From positions 1,110,001-1,142,000 of the forward strand of contig NZ_CP065936.1 of NCBI RefSeq assembly GCF_003367075.2: 32,000 bases of DNA. The letters are read 5' to 3'. Of the stretch, positions 1-31,714 are shown piece after piece; positions within the stretch are counted from its first letter, which is position 1, and each line of letters starts with the position of its first letter. This stretch comes from Cylindrospermopsis raciborskii Cr2010. Its GTDB lineage: Bacteria; Cyanobacteriota; Cyanobacteriia; Cyanobacteriales; Nostocaceae. The notes below the pieces were generated by a model. The model was not told where the DNA came from, searched no databases, and saw nothing but the letters and a program-made list of their open reading frames with translations. The position numbers and the translations under genes were made by a program.

Positions 1-21
1 ACAATAAGTAACAAGAGTGAA

Positions 22-72
22 AAAATAGGTCGCCCCTGGTGTCTTTGCTCGACGATATTCCATATTATAATT
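22..72. repeat. Left copy of a 51-bp direct repeat bracketing the tandem array
   Basis: AAAATAGGTCGCCCCTGGTGTCTTTGCTCGACGATATTCCATATTATAATT recurs at 2933-2983 with about 4 mismatches. Weaker similarity extends about 20 bp further left in both copies. Confidence 0.85.
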
Positions 73-90
73 AATGAAACAGAAAAGGAT

Positions 91-2670
91 AACCCAACAA
101 ACCAACAGAGAGAAAAACAGATACCCTTAAAACATTATATAATCCCGTAGGTTGGGTTGAGGAACGAAACCCAACAAACCCCACTGTTAATTATAGTCCA
201 TGTGAACTCCTTGTATTATAGGGTGAGCGGTTTGATTTTACTTCCAGCGATCGCCTGTTTTTAAAAATATTTACCGTAGGTTGGGTTGAGGAACGAAACC
301 CAACAAACCCCACTGTTAATTATAGTCCATGTGAACTCCTTGTATTATAGGGTGGGCGGTTTGATTTTACTTCCAGCGATCGCCTGTTTTTAAAAACATT
401 TACCGTAGGTTGGATTGAGAAAACCCAACAAACCCCACTGTTAATTATAGTCCATGTGAACTCCTTGTATTATAGGGTGGGCGGTTTGATTTTACTTCCA
501 GCGATCGCCTGTTTTTAAAAACATTTACCGTAGGTTGGATTGAGAAAACCCAACAAACCCCACTGTTAATTATAGTTTATGTGAACTCCTTGTCTTATAG
601 GGTGAGCGGTTTGATTTTACTTCCAGCGATCGCCTGTTTTTAAAAACATTTACCGTAGGTTGGATTAAGAAAACCCAACAAACCAACAGAGAGAAAAACA
701 GATACCCTTAAAACATCATATAATCCCGTAGGTTGGGTTGAGGAACGAAACCCAACAAACCCCACTGTTAATCATAGTCTATGTGAACTCCTTGTATTAT
801 AGGGTGGGCGGTTTGATTTTACTTCCAGCGATCGCCTGTTTTTAAAAACATTTACCGTAGGTTGGATTGAGAAAACCCAACAAACCCCACTGTTAATTAT
901 AGTCCATGTGAACTCCTTGTATTATAGGGTGGGCGGTTTGATTTTACTTCCAGCGATCGCCTGTTTTTAAAAACATTTACCGTAGGTTGGGTTGAGGAAC
1001 GAAACCCAACAAACCAACAGATACCCTTAAAACATTATATAATCCCGTAGGTTAGATTGAGAAAACCCAACAAACCTCACCGTTAATTATAGTCTATGTG
1101 AACTCCTTGTCTTATAGGGTGGGCGGTTTGATTTTACTTCCAGCGATCGCCTGTTTTTAAAAACATTTACCGTAGGTTGGATTGAGAAAACCCAACAAAC
1201 CCCACTGTTAATTATAGTTTATGTGAACTCCTTGTCTTATAGGGTGAGCGGTTTGATTTTACTTCCAGCGATCGCCTGTTTTTAAAAACATTTACCGTAG
1301 GTTGGATTAAGAAAACCCAACAAACCAACAGAGAGAAAAACAGATACCCTTAAAACATCATATAATCCCGTAGGTTGGGTTGAGGAACGAAACCCAACAA
1401 ACCCCACTGTTAATCATAGTCTATGTGAACTCCTTGTCTTATAGGGTGATCGGTTTGATTTTACTTCCAGCGATCGCCTGTTTTTAAAAACATTTACCGT
1501 AGGTTGGATTGAGAAAACCCAACAAACCCCACTGTTAATTATAGTTTATGTGAACTCCTTGTCTTATAGGGTGATCGGTTTGATTTTACTTCCAGCGATC
1601 GCCTGTTTTTAAAAACATTTACCGTAGGTTGGATTGAGAAAACCCAACAAACCCCACTGTTAATTATAGTTTATGTGAACTCCTTGTATTATAGGGTGGG
1701 CGGTTTGATTTTACTTCCAGCGATCGCCTGTTTTTAAAAACATTTACCGTAGGTTGGGTTGAGAAAACCTAACAAACCCCACTGTTAATTATAGTCCATG
1801 TGAACTCCTTGTCTTATAGGGTGGGCGGTTTGATTTTACTTCCAGCGATCGCCTGTTTTTAAAAACATTTACCGTAGGTTGGGTTGAGGAACGAAACCCA
1901 ACAAACCAACAGATACCCTTAAAACATTATATAATCCCATAGGTTAGATTGAGAAAACCCAACAAACCTCACCGTTAATTATAGTCTATGTGAACTCCTT
2001 GTCTTATAGGGTGATCGGTTTGATTTTACTTCCAGCGATCGCCTTTAAAAACATTTACCGTAGGTTGGATTGAGAAAACCCAACAAACCCCACTGTTAAT
2101 TATAGTTTATGTGAACTCCTTGTATTATAGGGTGGGCGGTTTGATTTTACTTCCAGCGATCGCCTGTTTTAAAAACATTTACCGTAGGTTGGGTTGAGGA
2201 ACGAAACCCAACAAACCCCACTGTTAATTATAGTCCATGTGAACTCCTTGTATTATAGGGTGGGCGGTTTGATTTTACTTCCAGCGATCGCCTGTTTTTA
2301 AAAATATTTACCGTAGGTTGGATTAAGAAAACCCAACAAACCAACAGAGAGAAAAACAGATACCCTTAAAACATTATATAATCCCGTAGGTTGGGTTGAG
2401 GAACGAAACCCAACAAACCCCACTGTTAATTATAGTTTATGTGAACTCCTTGTATTATAGGGTGGGCGGTTTGATTTTACTTCCAGCGATCGCCTGTTTT
2501 TAAAAACATTTACCGTAGGTTGGATTGAGAAAACCCAACAAACCCCACTGTTAATTATAGTTTATGTGAACTCCTTGTCTTATAGGGTGAGCGGTTTGAT
2601 TTTACTTCCAGCGATCGCCTGTTTTTAAAAACATTTACCGTAGGTTGGATTGAGAAAACCCAACCTACGG
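91..2670. repeat. Non-coding higher-order tandem repeat array (125/129-bp unit with hairpin and HIP1 site)
   Basis: CCGTAGGTT hairpin modules start at 145, 274, 403, 528, 653, 726, 855, 980, 1045, 1170, 1295, 1368, 1497, 1622, 1747, 1872, 1937, 2058, 2182, 2311, 2384, 2513 and 2638 (23 copies). Seventeen are followed by the same ~95-bp body, CCCACTGTTAATTATAGTYYATGTGAACTCCTTGTMTTATAGGGTGRKCGGTTTGATTTTACTTCCAGCGATCGCCTGTTTTTAAAAACATTTA. Five, plus a partial one at 91, are followed by a 32-41-bp spacer, CAACAG(AGAGAAAAACAG)ATACCCTTAAAACATYATATAATC. The track shows no ORF of 60 aa or more on either strand across 1-2650. Confidence 0.95.
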
Positions 2671-2750
2671 GACTATATAATTATTCAAGGTTATACAGCA
2701 GATTCTTTTGTTATGATGTACTTCATGAAAGTGGAAAGTGCTGTATGTGT

Positions 2751-2816
2751 GTATCTCCCTGTTGGTTTGTTGGGTTTCGTTCCTCAACCCAACCTACGAG
2801 ACTATATCAAAGGAAT
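2751..2816 (-). repeat. Reverse-complement copy of the spacer plus long-hairpin module of the array
   Basis: GTATCTCCCTGTTGGTTTGTTGGGTTTCGTTCCTCAACCCAACCTACGAGACTATAT is the reverse complement of the array segment ATATAATCCCGTAGGTTGGGTTGAGGAACGAAACCCAACAAACCAACAG..ATAC. Confidence 0.85.
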
Positions 2817-2932
2817 TTATGTTAAAAGAAGTCAATATTGGCACTTTGATAAAAAGCGATCGCACTTTTCATGGGGGTTGTCCCATGATTGCGGGAACTG
2901 GTGTTACCGTATGAAGAATAGTAATCTAGTAT

Positions 2933-2983
2933 AAATTAGGTCGCTCCTGGTGTTTTTGCTCGACGATATTCCATATTATAATT
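2933..2983. repeat. Right copy of the 51-bp direct repeat bracketing the tandem array
   Basis: AAATTAGGTCGCTCCTGGTGTTTTTGCTCGACGATATTCCATATTATAATT matches 22-72. Confidence 0.85.
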
Positions 2984-3037
2984 GGTGGAATACAGGAGTA
3001 TGTTTGGATCAATCCGTTGAAAAAGAATTTTGGTGTC

Positions 3038-3061
3038 AGACAGGGAATTCATTCCCTGTCT
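3038..3061. repeat. Perfect palindrome (11-bp arms, EcoRI site at centre) just 3' of the 83-aa minus-strand gene
   Basis: AGACAGGGAAT-TC-ATTCCCTGTCT. No adjacent U-tract on either strand, so it is not a canonical intrinsic terminator. Confidence 0.7.
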
Positions 3062-3113
3062 CACCATTGAGAGCGAAATGCGATCGCCTACCTCTAATTC
3101 ATAGATAAACCGG

Positions 3114-3365
3114 TCAATTAATCAGAATCTGTCTTACCAGAATACTCATGACCTCCCCTGGGTTACTAGTCGGTATCGGATCACTCCAATCAGTTGCATG
3201 GGCATAACCAAGCACATGTAGATAGTGAATCGTACTAATAACTGTCTTTTTCGATCCAATTAACAGGTGCTTTAATGGTTCCCTGCGATCGCTTTCTGGA
3301 ACTACCGTAGGGCCAACTACTCTAGTTTCGTTGACATTGCCAATAAAATTCTTAGTCTGTGTCAT
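3114..3365 (-). CDS. Small hypothetical protein, 83 aa (MTQTKNFIGNV...PGEVMSILVRQILIN)
   Basis: ATG at 3365 is preceded by GAGG about 9 nt upstream. A sigma70-like promoter at 3442-3470 overlaps the TTG start given in the ORF track, which favours the shorter form. No recognisable catalytic motif, and the protein is not hydrophobic. Confidence 0.6.
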   Translation of the reverse strand: MTQTKNFIGNVNETRVVGPTVVPESDRREPLKHLLIGSKKTVISTIHYLHVLGYAHATDWSDPIPTSNPGEVMSILVRQILIN

Positions 3366-3840: not shown

Positions 3841-4008
3841 ATGAATTTAATCGACAATAACGTGCTATTCACCCAGGTCGTTGATAGAGAATCTGTTAGT
3901 ATCAATGGTGGTGGTCTCTTGGAAATAGTTAATTTGCCTAATGACGTGCTAAATTACTTCCAGAATTTACCATCACAGTTAGAAAATTGGATTCTCGGAT
4001 ATCTTTAA
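3841..4008 (+). CDS. Double-glycine-leader peptide 1 (55 aa), bacteriocin- or pheromone-like precursor
   Basis: Leader MNLIDNNVLFTQVVDRESVSINGG, then core GLLEIVNLPNDVLNYFQNLPSQLENWILGYL. AAGGA sits 10 nt upstream of the ATG. The leader aligns with peptides 2 and 3, and a C39-ABC exporter lies downstream. Confidence 0.8.
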   Translation: MNLIDNNVLFTQVVDRESVSINGGGLLEIVNLPNDVLNYFQNLPSQLENWILGYL

Positions 4009-4112: not shown

Positions 4113-4224
4113 GGTGGAATTAAATATAAGATGAACGTAGGTTGGGTTGAAGTATGAAACCCAACACCCGCATGGGTTACGCTACCGCTAACCCATCCTA
4201 CAAATAATTGTGCCTCCCTACTTA
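4113..4224 (+). mobile_element. MITE-like ~112-bp element containing the GTAGGTTGGGTT..AACCCAAC hairpin (copy A)
   Basis: GGTGGAATTAAATATAAGATGAACGTAGGTTGGGTTGAAGTATGAAACCCAACACCCGCATGGG...CATCCTACAAATAATTGTGCCTCCCTACTTA. A reverse-complement copy sits at 31620-31714 with a ~17-bp internal deletion. No transposase is present. Confidence 0.7.
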
Positions 4225-4496: not shown

Positions 4497-4685
4497 ATGC
4501 AAGTAATCGAAAAGAACTCATTATTCGCTCAAGTTTCTGGTGAACAGTCTGCTGTTGTTAGTGGTGGTGCTGTTGGAGAGTTTTATGATGCCGCTGCATA
4601 CGCCATAGTAGCAGCTTTTCTTGGTGTTGATCCTGATCTTATTAAGTTCCAAGCAGTTAACATCTTGTTTGGTCCTCTGGTGTAA
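4497..4685 (+). CDS. Double-glycine-leader peptide 2 (62 aa)
   Basis: Leader MQVIEKNSLFAQVSGEQSAVVSGG, then core AVGEFYDAAAYAIVAAFLGVDPDLIKFQAVNILFGPLV. There is a strong AAGGAG Shine-Dalgarno sequence 8 nt upstream. Confidence 0.85.
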   Translation: MQVIEKNSLFAQVSGEQSAVVSGGAVGEFYDAAAYAIVAAFLGVDPDLIKFQAVNILFGPLV

Positions 4686-4865: not shown

Positions 4866-5093
4866 ATGGCACAAAATAATTTATTTACTGAAATATCAGA
4901 AGAAGAATCTGCAACTATTAAAGGTGGTGGATTCCTTGAAGCTGCTGCATATCTCATAGTAATGCAATCACTATTTCCTTTTATTGCGTATAGTCCAGAG
5001 GTAATAAATACAGCGCTTTTATTTCTTACTGGTGTGCTATCGTTCCCTCAAAATAATAATACAAACCCAAGCAACCTCTCAAAAGATAATTAG
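4866..5093 (+). CDS. Double-glycine-leader peptide 3 (75 aa)
   Basis: Leader MAQNNLFTEISEEESATIKGG, then core GFLEAAAYLIVMQSLFPFIAYSPEVINTALLFLTGVLSFPQNNNTNPSNLSKDN. GGAG sits 11 nt upstream of the ATG at 4866. The in-frame TTG at 4842 from the track is a less likely start by leader alignment. Confidence 0.8.
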   Translation: MAQNNLFTEISEEESATIKGGGFLEAAAYLIVMQSLFPFIAYSPEVINTALLFLTGVLSFPQNNNTNPSNLSKDN

Positions 5094-5216: not shown

Positions 5217-7367
5217 ATGAAATACCCCCATATTTCCCAACACAGTGAAGAAGACTGTGGCGCTGCTTGCTTAGCGGCGATCGCCAAATATTATGGCAAA
5301 AATTTCACTATCACTCGCATCCGAGAATCCGTGGGTACAAGCCAATTCGGTACCACCTTATTAGGTCTACAAAGAGGAGCTAAAACCTTGGGTTTTAAAG
5401 CTTCAACAGTCAGAACTTCACCAGAAATTCTCAAAAGATTAAACGAAGCACCCCTACCAGCAATCATTCATTGGCACGGAAATCACTGGGTGGTTTTTTA
5501 TGGTAAAAAGGGTGAAAAGTATATAATCTCTGACCCAGGAGCAGGGGTACGTTACCTCTGTGAAGAAGACTTTATAGAGGGTTGGAATGATTGGTTAATG
5601 CTATTGCTAGAACCCAGTCCAGAAGAGTTTTTAAAAACAGAAGAAGATAAAATAGGTGGCTTTTGGCGTTTCTTTAAACAGGTGTGGAGTTTTCGGGGAA
5701 TTCTCGCCCAAGCTCTACCGCTCAATTTATTATTAGGACTGCTATCTCTAGCTTCCCCCTTTTTATTACAAATTCTTACTGATGATGTGCTAGTACGGGG
5801 TGATACTAAATTACTCACAACTATGGTTATTGCTGTGGTTGTGATGAATCTTATTTCCAGTAGTCTATCTTGGGTGCAATCTAATTTAATCGCCCATTTT
5901 GCCCAACGTCTCCAATTGGGACTGGTGATGGAATTTGGTAGACAAATTTTGCACTTACCCCTGTCTTATTACGAAGCTCGTCGCAGTGGGGAAATTACTA
6001 GTCGTCTCCAAGATATTAAGCAAATCAATCAGTTGGTTACTCAAGTAGTTGTCAGTTTACCTAGCAAATTTTTTATTGCTCTGATTTCTCTTGGTCTGAT
6101 GGCTTTTTATAGCTGGAAGTTAACTTTGGTGGCTATGGTAATTGCTGGGGTTATGACTATTACTCCTTTGGTGTTTCAACCTAAATTACAGCAAAAAACC
6201 CGGGAACTACTGGTTAAAGATGCGGAAACTCAGGGTGTATTGGTGGAAACTTTTAAGGGTGCTCTAACTCTCAAAACTACTACTGCTGGTAATCAATTCC
6301 TAGAAGAGTTCCAAGTTCGATTTGGCAAGTTGGCTAATTTAACTTTGGACACTATGCAAATTGGTATTATTAATAATACCTTTTCTGGCTTTATCTCCTC
6401 TATTGGTAGTATTATCCTCCTCTGGTTTGGTGGTCATTTAGTGATTAATCCCAGTGAAAATCTCAGTATTGGTCAATTACTGGCTTTTAATTCGATGAAT
6501 GCTAATTTCCTGGGTCTCATAACTACTGTTATCAGTTTTGTCCAGGAATTTACCCGCGCTAAAACAGCAGTGCAAAGACTGACGGAAGTGATAGATACCA
6601 CTCCAGAAAGTGACTATGATGGTAAAAAGCCTTTTGCTAAAATCGCTGATGATGCTAAAATCACTTGCACTAATATCAACTTTCATTATGCTGGGAGACT
6701 TGACTTATTAGAAGACTTTTCTTTAACTATTCCCGGTGGTCAAGTCGTGGCTTTAATCGGTAAGTCAGGATGTGGTAAAAGTACCTTGGCTAAATTAATC
6801 GCTGGGTTATATACCATCCAATCTGGAAATATTCGCATTGGACTCTATAACCAACAAGATTTGTCTTTAGAATCTTTACGTCAACAGGTGATTCTAGTTC
6901 CCCAGGAACCCCATTTCTGGAGTCGTTCTATTGTGGAAAACTTTCGGTTGGGCGCACCTCACGTTAGTTTTGAGCAGATTGTCCGAGCTTGTGAAATTGC
7001 TGGTGCTGATGAATTTGTCAGTAAATTACCCGCAAAATATCAAACTATATTGGGTGAATTTGGTGCTAATATTTCCGGTGGTCAAAGACAACGATTAGCT
7101 ATAGCTAGGGCTATTGTTACAGATCCACCAATTCTAATTTTGGATGAGTCTACCGGGGGACTAGACCCGGTCAGTGAAGCACAGGTTTTAGATCAGTTAT
7201 TTGAACATCGTCAAGGAAAAACTACTATTTTAATCACCCATCGTCCCCAGGTAATCAATCGTGCTGATTGGGTCATTATGTTGGATGGAGGAAAACTCCA
7301 ATCCCAAGGATCTTTAGAAGAATTGAAATTCAGACGAGGGGAACACCAAGACTTTATTCTGCTTTAA
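5217..7367 (+). CDS. Peptidase-C39-domain ABC transporter (PCAT), a double-glycine peptide processing exporter
   Basis: The N-terminus has QHSEEDCGAACL (catalytic Cys), GNHWVVF (His) and ISDPG (Asp). It is followed by a 6-TM ABC membrane domain, Walker A GKSGCGKST, signature ISGGQRQR and Walker B ILILDEST. Confidence 0.93.
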   Translation: MKYPHISQHSEEDCGAACLAAIAKYYGKNFTITRIRESVGTSQFGTTLLGLQRGAKTLGFKASTVRTSPEILKRLNEAPLPAIIHWHGNHWVVFYGKKGEKYIISDPGAGVRYLCEEDFIEGWNDWLMLLLEPSPEEFLKTEEDKIGGFWRFFKQVWSFRGILAQALPLNLLLGLLSLASPFLLQILTDDVLVRGDTKLLTTMVIAVVVMNLISSSLSWVQSNLIAHFAQRLQLGLVMEFGRQILHLPLSYYEARRSGEITSRLQDIKQINQLVTQVVVSLPSKFFIALISLGLMAFYSWKLTLVAMVIAGVMTITPLVFQPKLQQKTRELLVKDAETQGVLVETFKGALTLKTTTAGNQFLEEFQVRFGKLANLTLDTMQIGIINNTFSGFISSIGSIILLWFGGHLVINPSENLSIGQLLAFNSMNANFLGLITTVISFVQEFTRAKTAVQRLTEVIDTTPESDYDGKKPFAKIADDAKITCTNINFHYAGRLDLLEDFSLTIPGGQVVALIGKSGCGKSTLAKLIAGLYTIQSGNIRIGLYNQQDLSLESLRQQVILVPQEPHFWSRSIVENFRLGAPHVSFEQIVRACEIAGADEFVSKLPAKYQTILGEFGANISGGQRQRLAIARAIVTDPPILILDESTGGLDPVSEAQVLDQLFEHRQGKTTILITHRPQVINRADWVIMLDGGKLQSQGSLEELKFRRGEHQDFILL

Positions 7368-7408: not shown

Positions 7409-8809
7409 ATGTTTTATACTCATCGACCTAAACTCATATCTTCTGTGGATAATCCCCAGTTCCTCCCTCCTGTTAGTCGTTGGACTTCTTTAGCAGGAAT
7501 ATTCCTAATTGGTACTGTTACTAGTGCTATTGCTCTTGCTTCTTGGGTGAAATATAACGTCACGGTAAAAGTGGATGCTGTGGTTCGTCCTATAGGGGAA
7601 GTTCGTGTAGTTCAACCGGAAGTAGAGGGAACTATTAAAAGTATTTTGGTCAAACCAAATCAAACGGTGAAAATAGGTGATGTAATTGCCTATTTAAATA
7701 CGGATGATTTGCTTATCAAAAAAAGTCAGTTACAAGGTAATATCCAACAGGGTAATTTACAAATATCGCAAGTTTATGCCCAAATTCGTATTTTAGATCG
7801 GCAAATTTTGGCTGAAACTCAAGTTGCTCAAAATGCTATTACTTCCGCAAGGGTGGATTTGTTACGTAATCAAAGGGAATATCAAGAACAGCAGGTTAGC
7901 ACCCAGGGTGAATTTTTAGCCGCTCAAGCTAATTGGCAAAAGGCTAAAGCTTCTTTAGATAAAGCTCGAGCAGATCTGAGTTTTGCCAAAATGGATAAGG
8001 AACGCTATCAGGAACTCTCCCAAATTGGAGCTGTGGGTAGACGGGAATTGGAGCAAAAAGCTTTGACTGTTCAGCAAACACAGTCAATCCTGGATACTGA
8101 AAGGAAATCTCTGGAAATGGCTAAAATTAAGGTTCAGTCAGCTCAAGTTGCTATTAATCCAACCCCAGCAGCAGTGATGATAGCACAGGAACGTATCGCT
8201 CAAGAAACTGCTAGGGGTGTGTCTAATATTGCTAGTCTCAATAAGGAAAAACAAGCTTTAATTGAGCGTCGAGTTCAATTAGAAACTCAGATTAAACAAT
8301 CTATTAAGGAATTAGAGCAGGTAGAAAATCAGATGCGTAAAAGTATGATTTTAGCTACGAGTAATGGTATTATTCTCAAACTCAATTTACGCAATCCGGG
8401 ACAGGTGATCCGTCCCAGTGAATCTATAGCGGAAATTGTACCTGATAGTTCGGATCTGTTAATTAGAGCTTTAATTCCTACTGAGGAAATTCAAAAGGTC
8501 AATATAGGTCAACAAGTTCAGTTACGGGTTGGTGCTTGTCCCTATCCTGATTATGGAACACTCCAGGGAGTGGTTCAAACTATTTCTCCTGATGTGATTA
8601 CCAATCAATCTAATAATCAAGGAACGACTAATAGGATGGGGAATGGTTATTTTGAAGCTACGGTTAAACCAGCAAGTTTACAATTTGGTCATGGTCGACA
8701 TCAATGTTATCTCCAATCGGGAATGGAGGTGAAAGCTGATATTATTTCTAAACAGGAAACTGCTCTGGAATTTATGTTCAGGAAAGCAAGGTTAATTACT
8801 GATTTGTAA
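7409..8809 (+). CDS. HlyD-family secretion or membrane-fusion protein
   Basis: It has an N-terminal TM segment (LAGIFLIGTVTSAIALASW), a lipoyl-like barrel (VQPEVEGTIKSILVKPNQTVKIGDVIAYL) and a long Q/A/E-rich coiled coil. It sits immediately after the PCAT. Confidence 0.9.
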   Translation: MFYTHRPKLISSVDNPQFLPPVSRWTSLAGIFLIGTVTSAIALASWVKYNVTVKVDAVVRPIGEVRVVQPEVEGTIKSILVKPNQTVKIGDVIAYLNTDDLLIKKSQLQGNIQQGNLQISQVYAQIRILDRQILAETQVAQNAITSARVDLLRNQREYQEQQVSTQGEFLAAQANWQKAKASLDKARADLSFAKMDKERYQELSQIGAVGRRELEQKALTVQQTQSILDTERKSLEMAKIKVQSAQVAINPTPAAVMIAQERIAQETARGVSNIASLNKEKQALIERRVQLETQIKQSIKELEQVENQMRKSMILATSNGIILKLNLRNPGQVIRPSESIAEIVPDSSDLLIRALIPTEEIQKVNIGQQVQLRVGACPYPDYGTLQGVVQTISPDVITNQSNNQGTTNRMGNGYFEATVKPASLQFGHGRHQCYLQSGMEVKADIISKQETALEFMFRKARLITDL

Positions 8810-13450: not shown

Positions 13451-13870
13451 TTATAAGTTGTTAAATGTTTTCCTCAGACCTTGGGCTATTTGTTCCAAAA
13501 TTCGACTGGGTAAAAAGTGGCGATCGCCTAAAACAATTGGCAATCCGCGATCGCCACTCTCACAAATACGCTGATGAATGGGAATTTGTCCCAGTAAAGG
13601 TGCTTCTAGTTCTTCTGACAAGAGTTTACCACCGTCTTTCCCAAAGATGTATTGGGGAGCTTGGAAACTGTCTACATTTTCATTTAGTAAATAGCTCATG
13701 TTCTCAATAATCCCCAAAACAGGCACACCTACCTGACGAAACATGTATACACTCCGTCGCACATCCGCGATCGCCACTTGTTGGGGAGTTGTTACCAGAA
13801 TCACTCCACAAATGGGACTTTCTTGAACGATTGTAATCTGGGCGTCACCTACATCCCGTAGATAATCCAA
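13451..13870 (-). pseudogene. 3' remnant of an Mrp/ApbC/NBP35-family ATPase gene
   Basis: It retains GVILVTTPQQVAIADVRRSVYMFRQVGVPVLGIIENMSY and the C-terminal region. The P-loop N-terminal half is absent, there is no ATG (TTG only), and the LDYL..PPGTGDAQ segment is shortened to LDYLRDVGDAQ. The next gene starts 44 bp away on the other strand. Confidence 0.7.
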
Positions 13871-16478: not shown

Positions 16479-16673
16479 AGTTGTTTTTGGGTTTGGCTAA
16501 CTCTTGCAGATGCTTTCATCTTTAAGGGTAATCCGAGATTTTCGGTTCACTTCTAAAGAAGACATTAAGAGTTGATGTGTAAGACAATAAACCATAACTA
16601 CTAAACTCTAGAATCTGATTTTGATTTGTATTTTCCCGAACAGATAAAACTTATAGGACAGGAGTTGCAAAAT

Positions 16674-17273
16674 ATGCTTGTTTATATTCTATCGTTGGTA
16701 GTGGCAATTGCCAGTTTAACTATTTACGCCAGTGCTTTCTTTTTCCCGGAAATTCACCGCAAAAACGATTTTATTTGGAGCGGGGTTGGTTTGTTTTATG
16801 CTTTGGTATTATGGGTTTTTGCATCCCGCATTACCGGGGGTCTATTACTGGGTCATGTAGCTAGTGTGTCACTTTTGTTATGGTTTGGTGGGCAAACTCT
16901 TTCTTTGCGTGGTCAACTTGTCTCCAAGGGAAAGCCAACGTCAGTTCCCACTGCACAACCGGAGATTAAGGGGATTCAGCAACCAGTATCTAAGATATCT
17001 TTACTGGAAAAGCTGCAACAGCTACCATCATTAATTATTAGGCCGTTTAATGGTCTTATAGTCAAGGTTCAGCAAGTGGTTTTTAAAAACCCCTCTGTAA
17101 ATACTAAAATATCCCCGTCACCCACTCCTGAACCACCCACTCCTGAACCACCCGCTCCTGAACCACCCGCTCCTGAATCACCCACTTCCGAACCACCCGC
17201 TCCTGAATCACCCACTTCCGAACCACCCGCTCCTGAACCACCCGCTCCCGAATCATCTAATCCCCAATCCTAG
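16674..17273 (+). CDS. ycf66: Ycf66-family membrane protein with proline-rich repeat tail
   Basis: MLVYILSLVVAIASLTIYASAFFFPEIHRKNDFIWSGVGLFYALVLW has the typical Ycf66 N-terminus. The ATG at 16674 is preferred over the TTG at 16626. The C-terminus is a PEPPAPE/PESPTSE repeat. Confidence 0.8.
   Translation: MLVYILSLVVAIASLTIYASAFFFPEIHRKNDFIWSGVGLFYALVLWVFASRITGGLLLGHVASVSLLLWFGGQTLSLRGQLVSKGKPTSVPTAQPEIKGIQQPVSKISLLEKLQQLPSLIIRPFNGLIVKVQQVVFKNPSVNTKISPSPTPEPPTPEPPAPEPPAPESPTSEPPAPESPTSEPPAPEPPAPESSNPQS
17123..17255 (+). repeat. In-frame 15-nt tandem repeats (CCTGAACCACCCGCT and variants) encoding (PEPPA/PESPT)n
   Basis: About 9 consecutive near-identical 15-nt units inside the ycf66 3' end. 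Confidence 0.85.
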
Positions 17274-21042: not shown

Positions 21043-21278
21043 ACTTGTGTCACCTCCTAGGGTAAATGCTCAGTCGTGAGTAATTTAGTTATGGCCATGT
21101 TGACTTACCGAAAACAACAAACCCCAGCGATCTTCGCCGGGGTTTCATAGTAGTATTTTTAATGCTGTAGTTCCCACGTCTGTTTAGCAGATGTGGAATT
21201 ACTTCAGTCAGTTAAAATTACAACCTCGGCAGGATATTAAGCTATACGCACCTGCTGTCTCCGGCTTAATTATGCAAA
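21043..21278 (-). promoter_or_regulatory. rplJ 5' leader (L10-leader-like) with a terminator-like attenuator hairpin
   Basis: This is a 236-nt spacer between rplA and rplJ. The minus strand reads CCCCGGCG-AAGAU-CGCUGGGG followed by UUUGUUGUUUU (plus-strand 21111-21142). Confidence 0.5.
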
Positions 21279-21995
21279 TTATGCAACGTCAGTTGTTTTG
21301 AAATCTCTCAGGGCATTAATATCAATTTTAATTGATGGACCCATGGTAGAAGAGATGTAGAATGTTCGCCAATACCGACCTTTTGCTCCTGAAGGACGAT
21401 TACGGTCAATGGTCTCTTGCAATGCTTTGAGGTTGACCAGCAGGTCTTCCGAAGAAAAGGAGGCTTTACCAAACATAACATGAACAATGCCAGTTCGGTC
21501 AGCACGAAATTCTAGTTTACCAGCTTTAAATTCACTAATCGCACTTGCTATGTCAAATGTTACTGTACCACCTTTAGGAGATGGCATCAACCCACGAGGA
21601 CCCAATAATTTCCCTAGCTTTGCTACCTGTGGCATCACATCAGGAGTAGCAATTAGCTTATCAAAGTCCATCATGCCCTTCTGAATTTCATCAATTAGTT
21701 CTTCAGAACCAGCTATGTCCGCCCCTGCATTGGTGGCTTCTGTGACTTTCTCACCTCTAGCAATAACTGCTACCCGCACTATCTGACCTGTACCCTTGGG
21801 TAACACCACAGTGGTTCGCAGTTGTTGATCCGTGTACTTAGGGTCAATTCCCAGGCGAATATGCGCTTCAGCAGCTTCGGCAAATTTTGCCGTAGCAGTC
21901 TCTTTCAATAGAGCTAACGCTTCTAAGGGAGTGTAATCCCGCTCTTCTACTTTTGCTTGCAACGCCTGTAATCGGCGTGATACTTTCTTTACCAT
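21279..21995 (-). CDS. rplA: 50S ribosomal protein L1
   Basis: [27 protein letters not shown] and position in the rplKAJL cluster. Confidence 0.97.
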
Positions 21996-23607: not shown

Positions 23608-23680
23608 CGCGCCCTGGAGGACTTGAACCCCCGACATTAGGTTTTGGAGACCTACGTTCTACCAACTGAACTAAGAGCGC
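23608..23680 (-). tRNA. trnW: tRNA-Trp (anticodon CCA)
   Basis: The minus strand reads GCGCTCTTAGTTCAGTTGGTAGAACGTAGGTCTCCAAAACCTAATGTCGGGGGTTCAAGTCCTCCAGGGCGCG. It has a 7-bp acceptor stem, a CT-CCA-AA anticodon loop and a GGTTCAAGTCC T-arm. The 3' CCA is not encoded. Confidence 0.92.
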
Positions 23681-31619: not shown

Positions 31620-31714
31620 TAAGTAGGGAGGCACAATTATTTGTAGGATGCCCATGGGGGCGTTGGGTTTCATACTTCAACCCAACCTACGTTCATCTTA
31701 TATTTAATTCCACC
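31620..31714 (-). mobile_element. MITE-like element, copy B (reverse complement of 4113-4224, internally deleted)
   Basis: Its reverse complement reads GGTGGAATTAAATATAAGATGAACGTAGGTTGGGTTGAAGTATGAAACCCAACGCCCCCATGGGCATCCTACAAATAATTGTGCCTCCCTACTTA. It overlaps the last codons and stop of the KAS gene. Confidence 0.7.

Follow-up and report, generated by a model that had tools for sequence, protein, structure and literature searches.

A strain-variable tandem array in Raphidiopsis raciborskii as a probable REPtron: GTAG-REP units beside a predicted RAYT gene

A tandem array occupies positions 91-2670 of the window, by which we mean the whole stretch of 32,000 nucleotides, from Raphidiopsis (Cylindrospermopsis) raciborskii, that was analysed. 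It is probably a REPtron (for the concept see PMC8266576), that is, an oversized, strain-variable tandem cluster of GTAG-headed REP sequences lying directly upstream of the start codon of the cognate REP-associated tyrosine transposase (RAYT). The best explanation is that copies of a selfish palindromic element, a known kind of bacterial repeat, have piled up here, and that the array is not a bank of small-RNA genes. This reading removes a candidate cyanobacterial sRNA family and puts a documented mechanism class, the REPtron, in its place. Among cyanobacteria, the locus would clearly exemplify a RAYT whose start codon adjoins an unusually large array of REPs in direct orientation.

Composition and edges of the array

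The features referred to below are listed by window position, except the last, which is on a syntenic locus.

1-63, minus strand: first 21 codons of the RAYT gene (translation MEYRRAKTPGATYFFTLVTYC); the remainder of the gene lies to the left of the window.
64-90, no strand: AT-rich upstream region of the RAYT gene, with ATTATAAT directly before the ATG, between gene and array; duplicated at 2977-3001.
91-2670: tandem array with 23 hairpin starts, comprising 17 long units, five short units, one truncated unit and a terminal full palindrome.
91-144, plus strand: truncated short (S) unit consisting of the 3′ half of the REP stem and the S spacer; this segment, h54, was found in all strains.
145-2637, plus strand: 22 complete units, head-to-tail, 17 long and five short.
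2638-2670, no strand: terminal complete palindrome CCGTAGGTTGG-loop-CCAACCTACGG, with a GTAG head on both strands.
2671-2812, minus strand: inverted S-like unit capping the array head-to-head, recognised by alignment to the S unit.
2933-3001, minus strand: direct copy of 22-90 with 84% identity, containing a remnant of the RAYT 5′ end, which runs for 12 codons to a stop, and the upstream ATTATAAT region.
4137-4201, no strand: dispersed REP doublet, in which one hairpin has the GTAGGTTGGGTT...AACCCAAC core around a loop unlike that of the array and the other GTAG hairpin lies on the other strand.
7409-8809: HlyD-like protein, ~5 kb from the array.
31662-31690, minus strand: dispersed copy of the REP core, intergenic.
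Syntenic locus L001, 1827-2369: full RAYT gene, 180 aa, whose first 21 codons are window positions 1-63.

Unit structure. Units were defined by cutting the array at each hairpin start. Long units measure 129 bp (six), 125 bp (nine), 121 bp (one) or 124 bp (one), and short units 73 bp (three) or 65 bp (two). A long unit is made of the REP hairpin and a ~95-nt spacer that contains an internal imperfect palindrome, one HIP1 site (GCGATCGC) and T5A5, while a short unit is made of the REP and a 36- or 44-nt spacer with TATATAAT at its 3′ end. The module CCGTAGG…CCCAACAAACC is common to both types, and the sequence that follows it differs. Mean identity among the 17 long units is 94.4%, with 22 of 129 columns variable; the variable sites are TAGTCC/TT/CT, GTA/CTTAT, GTGGG/AG/AT and a 4-nt indel in the loop. 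Near-identical units of REP plus flank are thus repeated head-to-tail, as in a tandem REP cluster. Tandem Repeats Finder gives rows of 125-bp period over 145-2664 (91-97% matches) and a higher-order row of 327-bp period at 403-1653 (score 2192), and long and short units alternate within the higher-order blocks. Every one of the 23 array REPs has its GTAG on the plus strand, the direct orientation.

The initial annotation had described a non-coding tandem array at these positions, with 17 full units, 23 hairpins, a hairpin and a HIP1 element in the unit, and variation confined to a few named sites. The repeat rows, the open reading frames and the splitting at hairpin starts agree with all of this. 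Its 125/129-bp unit length applies to 15 of the 17 long units; the short 65/73-bp type was not described separately there.

Two other classes of repeat were considered and rejected. For a coding array, the longest ORF within the array is 41 aa, unit lengths do not keep to multiples of three, and the sole SD plus ATG combination (AAGGAG-N6-ATG) leads into an ORF of four codons, and 11 of the 17 units lack it. CRISPR arrays have identical repeats with unique spacers between them; here the spacers are themselves repeated (mean unit identity 94%). A distant blastn search of PLSDB plasmids returned no match.

Edges. The terminal palindrome is the junction of the array with the inverted unit, and its DNA fold has −12.4 kcal/mol (z = −7). 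The capping unit has a REP at 2797-2769 on the minus strand and a AAACCAACAG... spacer with a 48-nt extra segment. Because 2933-3001 copies 22-90, a copy of the RAYT start stands on either side of the array. The doublet at 4137-4201 places the REP family outside the array too, and the 32-kb window has five REP copies in all outside the array, in stretches without a confirmed gene. The neighbours are the RAYT gene and hetZ on one side, and on the other double-glycine peptides, a C39 ABC exporter and HlyD, an export cluster of bacteriocin type.

The RAYT gene and its probable cognate REP

Immediately left of the array is a 180-aa minus-strand gene with a match to PF01797 (Y1_Tnp), beyond which lies hetZ at the syntenic loci; its start codon is 27 nt from the array. 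The protein scores 210 bits against the NCBIfam equivalog NF047646 (cut-off 80) and matches E. coli TnpA-REP (PDB 4ER8) with E=6e-40, the H-x-H motif and the Tyr-bearing YI.YNPV.HG segment both being aligned. The matching protein's database name is 'REP-associated tyrosine transposase [Cylindrospermopsis raciborskii]'. By these homologies the gene is a RAYT. At the syntenic locus in R. raciborskii a REP copy lies 86 bp past the RAYT stop codon, and partial duplications 3′ of the gene include the RAYT 3′ end and a REP; the gene thus has REPs on both sides, the adjacency that a REPtron implies.

A REP is an imperfect palindrome of 20-50 nt that follows a conserved unpaired tetranucleotide, usually GTAG. 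The array hairpin has this anatomy, with an unpaired GTAG head and the 8-bp stem GTTGGGTT-loop-AACCCAAC, the loop being 5 or 9 nt. Folded as DNA, the REP of the 129-bp type has −7.1 kcal/mol (z = −2.6) and that of the 125-bp type −3.2 kcal/mol, the GTAG-strand stem of the latter having an A/C mismatch. Given the mismatch and the weaker fold, the 125-bp-type REPs may be poor RAYT substrates.

The core GTAGGTTGGGTT-loop-AACCCAAC was found 19-250 bp from both ends of RAYT homologues in four of four unrelated cyanobacterial genomes (L141, L143, L144 and L145), the homologues having 64-81% identity to the R. raciborskii RAYT. At all four the upstream REP is on the gene strand and the downstream REP on the opposite strand. 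The same REP core therefore stands beside related RAYTs in four genomes, as co-inheritance of the two would have it. In species-representative genomes the core occurs at no fewer than 120 loci, in many cyanobacterial genera and in a few Desulfobacterales, Poribacteria and other bacteria, and among the matches listed the taxa with the core overlap those with the RAYT clade. The array hairpin is best explained, from these associations, as the cognate REP of the adjacent RAYT. The array REPs have the opposite orientation to the single upstream REP at the RAYT homologues, an observation that counts against a REPtron.

Among the matches listed, the core forms 73 singletons and 40 doublets (some inverted), and the longest same-strand run is three. 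Since the REP elsewhere is mostly single or double, 23 direct copies in one array are an extreme case for an otherwise common element. A metagenome scan gave 36 loci with two direct REPs 85-115 nt apart. Several of these are small tandem arrays of REP plus flank (117 bp × 3.7, 132 bp × 3.1 and 139 bp × 2.5), which have the same REP as the window array with unrelated spacers; the 139-bp example adjoins a RAYT of 57% identity.

Long-unit spacer. The 24-mer GTGAACTCCTTGTNTTATAGGGTG, specific to the long unit, had no match in 185,579 GTDB species-representative genomes and none in JGI metagenomes, and blastn-short of both spacers against the fetched DNA gave chance matches of 13-22 nt only. The unit is therefore not traceable beyond the strains found by protein look-up, and appears young and lineage-specific, unlike a conserved regulator. 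The initial annotation had proposed looking for the unit elsewhere as arrays or singletons, and the 24-mer gave neither in these collections. The lack of similarity of the ~95-nt spacer outside the array, in the sequences searched, is a further point against a REPtron.

The initial annotation also offered a MITE-derived satellite, in which a miniature inverted-repeat transposable element corresponding to the 125-bp unit would have amplified in place. The unit does have a hairpin of the kind common in small mobile repeats, and is both non-coding and lineage-specific. However, it has neither terminal inverted repeats nor target-site duplications, and in the sequences searched no dispersed single copy of its long spacer turned up, only the 25-29-nt REP being dispersed. 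We regard a MITE origin as very improbable. The part of that suggestion which comes close to the evidence is an amplified small mobile element, and the element is the REP.

Related arrangements. The nearest likeness is to the ordered tandem arrays of P. fluorescens SBW25, the largest with 12 GI and GIII REP sequences (Bertels & Rainey 2011, PMC3116915). There too REPIN clusters are found beside each RAYT gene, REPs lie head-to-tail at fixed spacing together with flanking DNA, and two module lengths alternate (112/72 bp in SBW25, ~125 and 65/73 bp in R. raciborskii) (PMC3116915). The two differ in REP sequence and phylum, and R. raciborskii has one REP type with two spacer types; unlike those of SBW25, its array touches the RAYT start codon, reaches 32 units in one strain and varies by a factor of about three from one near-identical strain to another.

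The E. coli rayt gene (tnpA-REP, yafM) is flanked by BIME-2 (PMC2817692), and the E. coli REPtron (PMC2817692, PMC8266576) resembles the present locus in its homologous RAYT (E=6e-40), its GTAG-headed REP and the reiterated REP units adjoining the gene. An E. coli BIME has two REPs per unit, alternating REP and iREP with short linkers, whereas each direct REP of R. raciborskii has a 36-95-nt non-REP spacer. The array is not a BIME in the strict sense of alternating orientation, only the capping unit at 2671-2812 being inverted. That all 23 of 23 REPs are direct, whereas those of classical BIMEs alternate, counts against a REPtron.

In the survey by Di Nocera et al. (2013, PMC3733652), the GTAG REP super-family includes the cyanobacterial families GTAG-12/15/16 and takes the form of singletons, head-head, tail-tail or head-tail dimers, and large tandem clusters that include flanking DNA. 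Anabaena, Nostoc and Cyanothece are reported there as carrying GTAG REPs, and Raphidiopsis is not among the genomes named. The R. raciborskii element, with a GTAG head and a short stem-loop, is like the super-family. Its array would thus fall in with the tandem clusters of REP plus flank.

Promoter-like sites and the small-RNA reading

Repeats of the NsiR1 type carry the DIF1 motif TCCGGA in their promoter, and each yields a discrete ~60-nt transcript that ends at a terminator. The initial annotation had likened the window array to this system, which lies upstream of hetF in Nostoc sp. PCC 7120 (PMC9045159). Each repeat would then be a minus-strand transcription unit, running from a −10 box through the REP stem-loop to a U run and giving an RNA of ~50-80 nt. 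What the two share is a heterocystous cyanobacterial host and direct repeats in tandem, every unit of which has a stem-loop (PMC9045159).

Several sequence signals agree with such a reading. On the minus strand, −10-like hexamers are present in all long units, with the stem-loop and a T5 run after them, in the order given by the initial annotation: the hairpin is 39 nt after the −10-like hexamer and the T5 run, as it had said, 12 nt after the hairpin. Its division of the hexamers into TATAAT in nine units and TATAAG in eight was exact. A promoter scan yielded 27 sites where shuffles gave 7.5 ± 2.8, a count to be read with the units being mutual copies and not independent. All 27 are on the minus strand facing the RAYT gene, and two or three sites in a unit, copied from unit to unit, account for them. 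An RNA complementary to the REP could in principle pair with REP-containing mRNAs.

The more specific hallmarks point the other way. A scan of Rfam, which the initial annotation had named as a check, gave nothing relevant at the gathering cut-off or at E<=10. In local alignment to NsiR1.1 and NsiR1.4, whose sequences were rebuilt from oligonucleotides in the supplement of PMC9045159, 84 of 500 and 210 of 500 shuffles respectively scored as well. TCCGGA does not occur in 1-3300, as had been annotated, and hetF is not a neighbour, its place being taken by hetZ and the RAYT gene and by the bacteriocin-type export cluster. A terminator scan of the whole region found one site, the terminal palindrome, and none per unit; with the T run 12 nt from the stem, no unit except that palindrome passes. 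The fold of the putative 76-nt RNA has z = −1.29 (plus strand +0.44), no better than shuffles, and the REP stem is its sole stable part. In the eight of 17 long units with TATAAG the final T of the −10 box is absent. Because the unit-specific 24-mer is absent outside the species in the representative genomes and JGI metagenomes, a conserved regulator is unlikely, and the unit number varies about threefold among near-identical strains. A literature search for sRNA or tandem-repeat work on R. raciborskii yielded nothing useful.

Unlike the NsiR1 array, then, the R. raciborskii repeat has no hetF, DIF1 motif, sequence similarity or canonical terminator, and in the collections searched it was not found beyond one species. 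An NsiR1-like small-RNA gene array gains no support from the DNA sequence, the tested hallmarks being absent, and we consider a small-RNA array decidedly unlikely.

A functional protein-binding or topological array would read the same features differently. The regularly spaced REPs would serve to attract gyrase or IHF from the host, to titrate the RAYT, or to insulate or tune its expression. In its favour, E. coli BIME-2 binds DNA gyrase and BIME-1 binds IHF (summarised in PMC2817692), and the array reaches the RAYT start-codon region with all promoter-like sites facing the gene. Yet a single upstream REP and short intergenic gaps suffice at RAYT homologues elsewhere, and the large copy-number differences among strains speak against a dosage-sensitive role, so we give this reading little credence.

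If the array is a REPtron, as we prefer, it would have no dedicated cellular function and would be a by-product of the REP/RAYT system, whether selfish or domesticated. The array may have an incidental effect on transcription that enters the RAYT gene, since all the promoter-like hexamers face that gene. The minus-strand bias of the 27 −10-like hexamers is left as a coincidence or side effect by a REPtron and counts against one.

Strain variation and growth of the array

Syntenic loci were found by exact look-up of the HlyD-like protein and of a 254-aa protein in public assemblies. They include accession VHLJ01, which is Raphidiopsis raciborskii GIHE 2018 (PMC7005129), and CP091284, which appears in a paper on a Cylindrospermopsis raciborskii phage (PMC9303873). 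Five long assemblies were compared, namely the window and L001-L004, two of the other four being CP-prefixed and 3.8-3.9 Mb. In all five the array shares its locus and flanks and the HlyD protein is identical, and the array as assembled ranges from 11 to 32 units and from 1.3 to 4.0 kb.

Units were typed at five variable sites, so that each array could be written as a string of unit types. Blocks recur from one string to another: for instance, the last seven units of the window are the last seven of L003, where this block is present twice. Very close strains thus have different copy numbers and unit orders, blocks having been gained and lost. The shared and doubled blocks are direct evidence of block duplication and deletion, as unequal recombination or slippage predicts.

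Five contigs from short reads or metagenomes extend as far as this region (L005-L009), and all five stop at the array or a short way into it. Such breaks would fit an assembly artefact, a repeat collapsed or inflated in assembly, and because of them the copy number in any given assembly is uncertain. The five independent long assemblies, however, place the array at the same locus and flanks with different but related unit strings. Its presence in the four others means that it is not an artefact of the assembly of this window alone. The chance that the array is an artefact is negligible.

Origin. The array would have arisen by tandem reiteration of one REP together with its flank, and would now grow and shrink as the 125-bp units slip in replication or undergo unequal homologous recombination with one another. 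Nicking of REP hairpins in single-stranded DNA by the RAYT may stimulate these changes.

A stronger role for the system is conceivable, and we hold it to be unlikely: the array would be a working 'source locus' of the REP/RAYT system, either built in cis by RAYT cleavage and strand transfer at REP boundaries, or transcribed from per-unit minus-strand promoters into REP-complementary RNAs acting on the RAYT mRNA or on REP-bearing transcripts genome-wide. If built in cis by the RAYT, the array would be a natural record of RAYT activity, which has never been seen in vivo. Under the REPtron reading, too, the locus is a possible natural system for asking whether RAYTs drive the growth of REP clusters.

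The array could serve as a high-resolution typing marker for R. raciborskii blooms, given the roughly threefold length difference among strains that are otherwise near-identical at the locus. It also explains the recurrent contig break in short-read assemblies of this species.

Distribution of the REP/RAYT pair

Among the matches listed, the same 29-nt REP core was found in species-representative genomes (loci L021-L140) of distant cyanobacterial orders, Desulfobacterales, Poribacteria and some Proteobacteria MAGs, and RAYT homologues with 60-84% identity (P0002-P0120) are likewise spread over these taxa. The nearest listed RAYT outside Raphidiopsis belongs to a Crocosphaera MAG (84%), not to the Nostocales. 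Because core and transposase both occur in such distant taxa, with the closest relative in Crocosphaera, these sequence matches suggest that the pair has spread horizontally.

Clusters of another style, unlike the 125-bp array of the window, were seen in metagenome contigs where this REP recurs head-to-tail at a 37-38-bp period (4 copies), leaving almost no spacer:
L157 9098-9212
L171 1076-1187
L178 809-885

Duplications and reading frames beside the array

In L001, a locus from another R. raciborskii assembly, a tandem partial duplication downstream of the RAYT stop (1640-1830) takes in ~12 nt from the very 3′ end of the gene together with a REP-containing flank of about 90 nt. This 3′-side duplication is the counterpart of the duplicated RAYT 5′ end at window 2933-3001.

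At the array end, the terminal palindrome and the inverted REP share bases with ORFs of 83-96 aa that gene callers have annotated in related strains:
2650-2934, +, annotated ORF
2623-2874, -, annotated ORF

These are probably spurious rather than real genes, since their translations contain REP-derived strings (…VGLLGFVPQPNL…).

Neighboring genes and strain differences

To the right of the array lies what looks like a class-II-bacteriocin-like precursor and export cluster, in which C39-peptidase exporter and HlyD-family genes directly follow three ORFs with double-glycine-type leaders; annotation of these three is not uniform among the strains compared.
3841-4008, +, small ORF 1, leader …SVSINGG|G…
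4497-4685, +, small ORF 2, leader …SAVVSGG|A…
about 4866-5093, +, small ORF 3, leader …SATIKGG|G…
5217-7367, +, C39-peptidase ABC exporter
7409-8809, +, HlyD-family protein

The ParA/Mrp-like gene (13451-13870, -), compared with L001 16043-21221, carries a gene-truncating indel at the strain level: the form is short (139 aa) in the window, L002, L003, L005, L007 and L009, and long (341 aa) in L001, L004, L006, L008 and L010, all loci from other R. raciborskii assemblies or contigs. In the latter five, additional genes spanning about 4-5 kb come after the long form; they encode HEAT-repeat, 4Fe-4S ferredoxin, FAD-binding flavoprotein and NMT1-type binding proteins.

Within the ORF for a Ycf66_N protein (16626-17273) is an in-frame tandem repeat, 15-bp (45-bp), of CACCCGCTCCTGAAC x8.9 (17118-17255); it is probably a coding VNTR, because the size of this protein differs among strains, from 184 to 215 aa.

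The remaining features are ordinary chromosomal context:
21107-21282, -, L10 leader (RF00557, 71 bits), upstream of rplJ-rplL
23608-23680, -, tRNA gene
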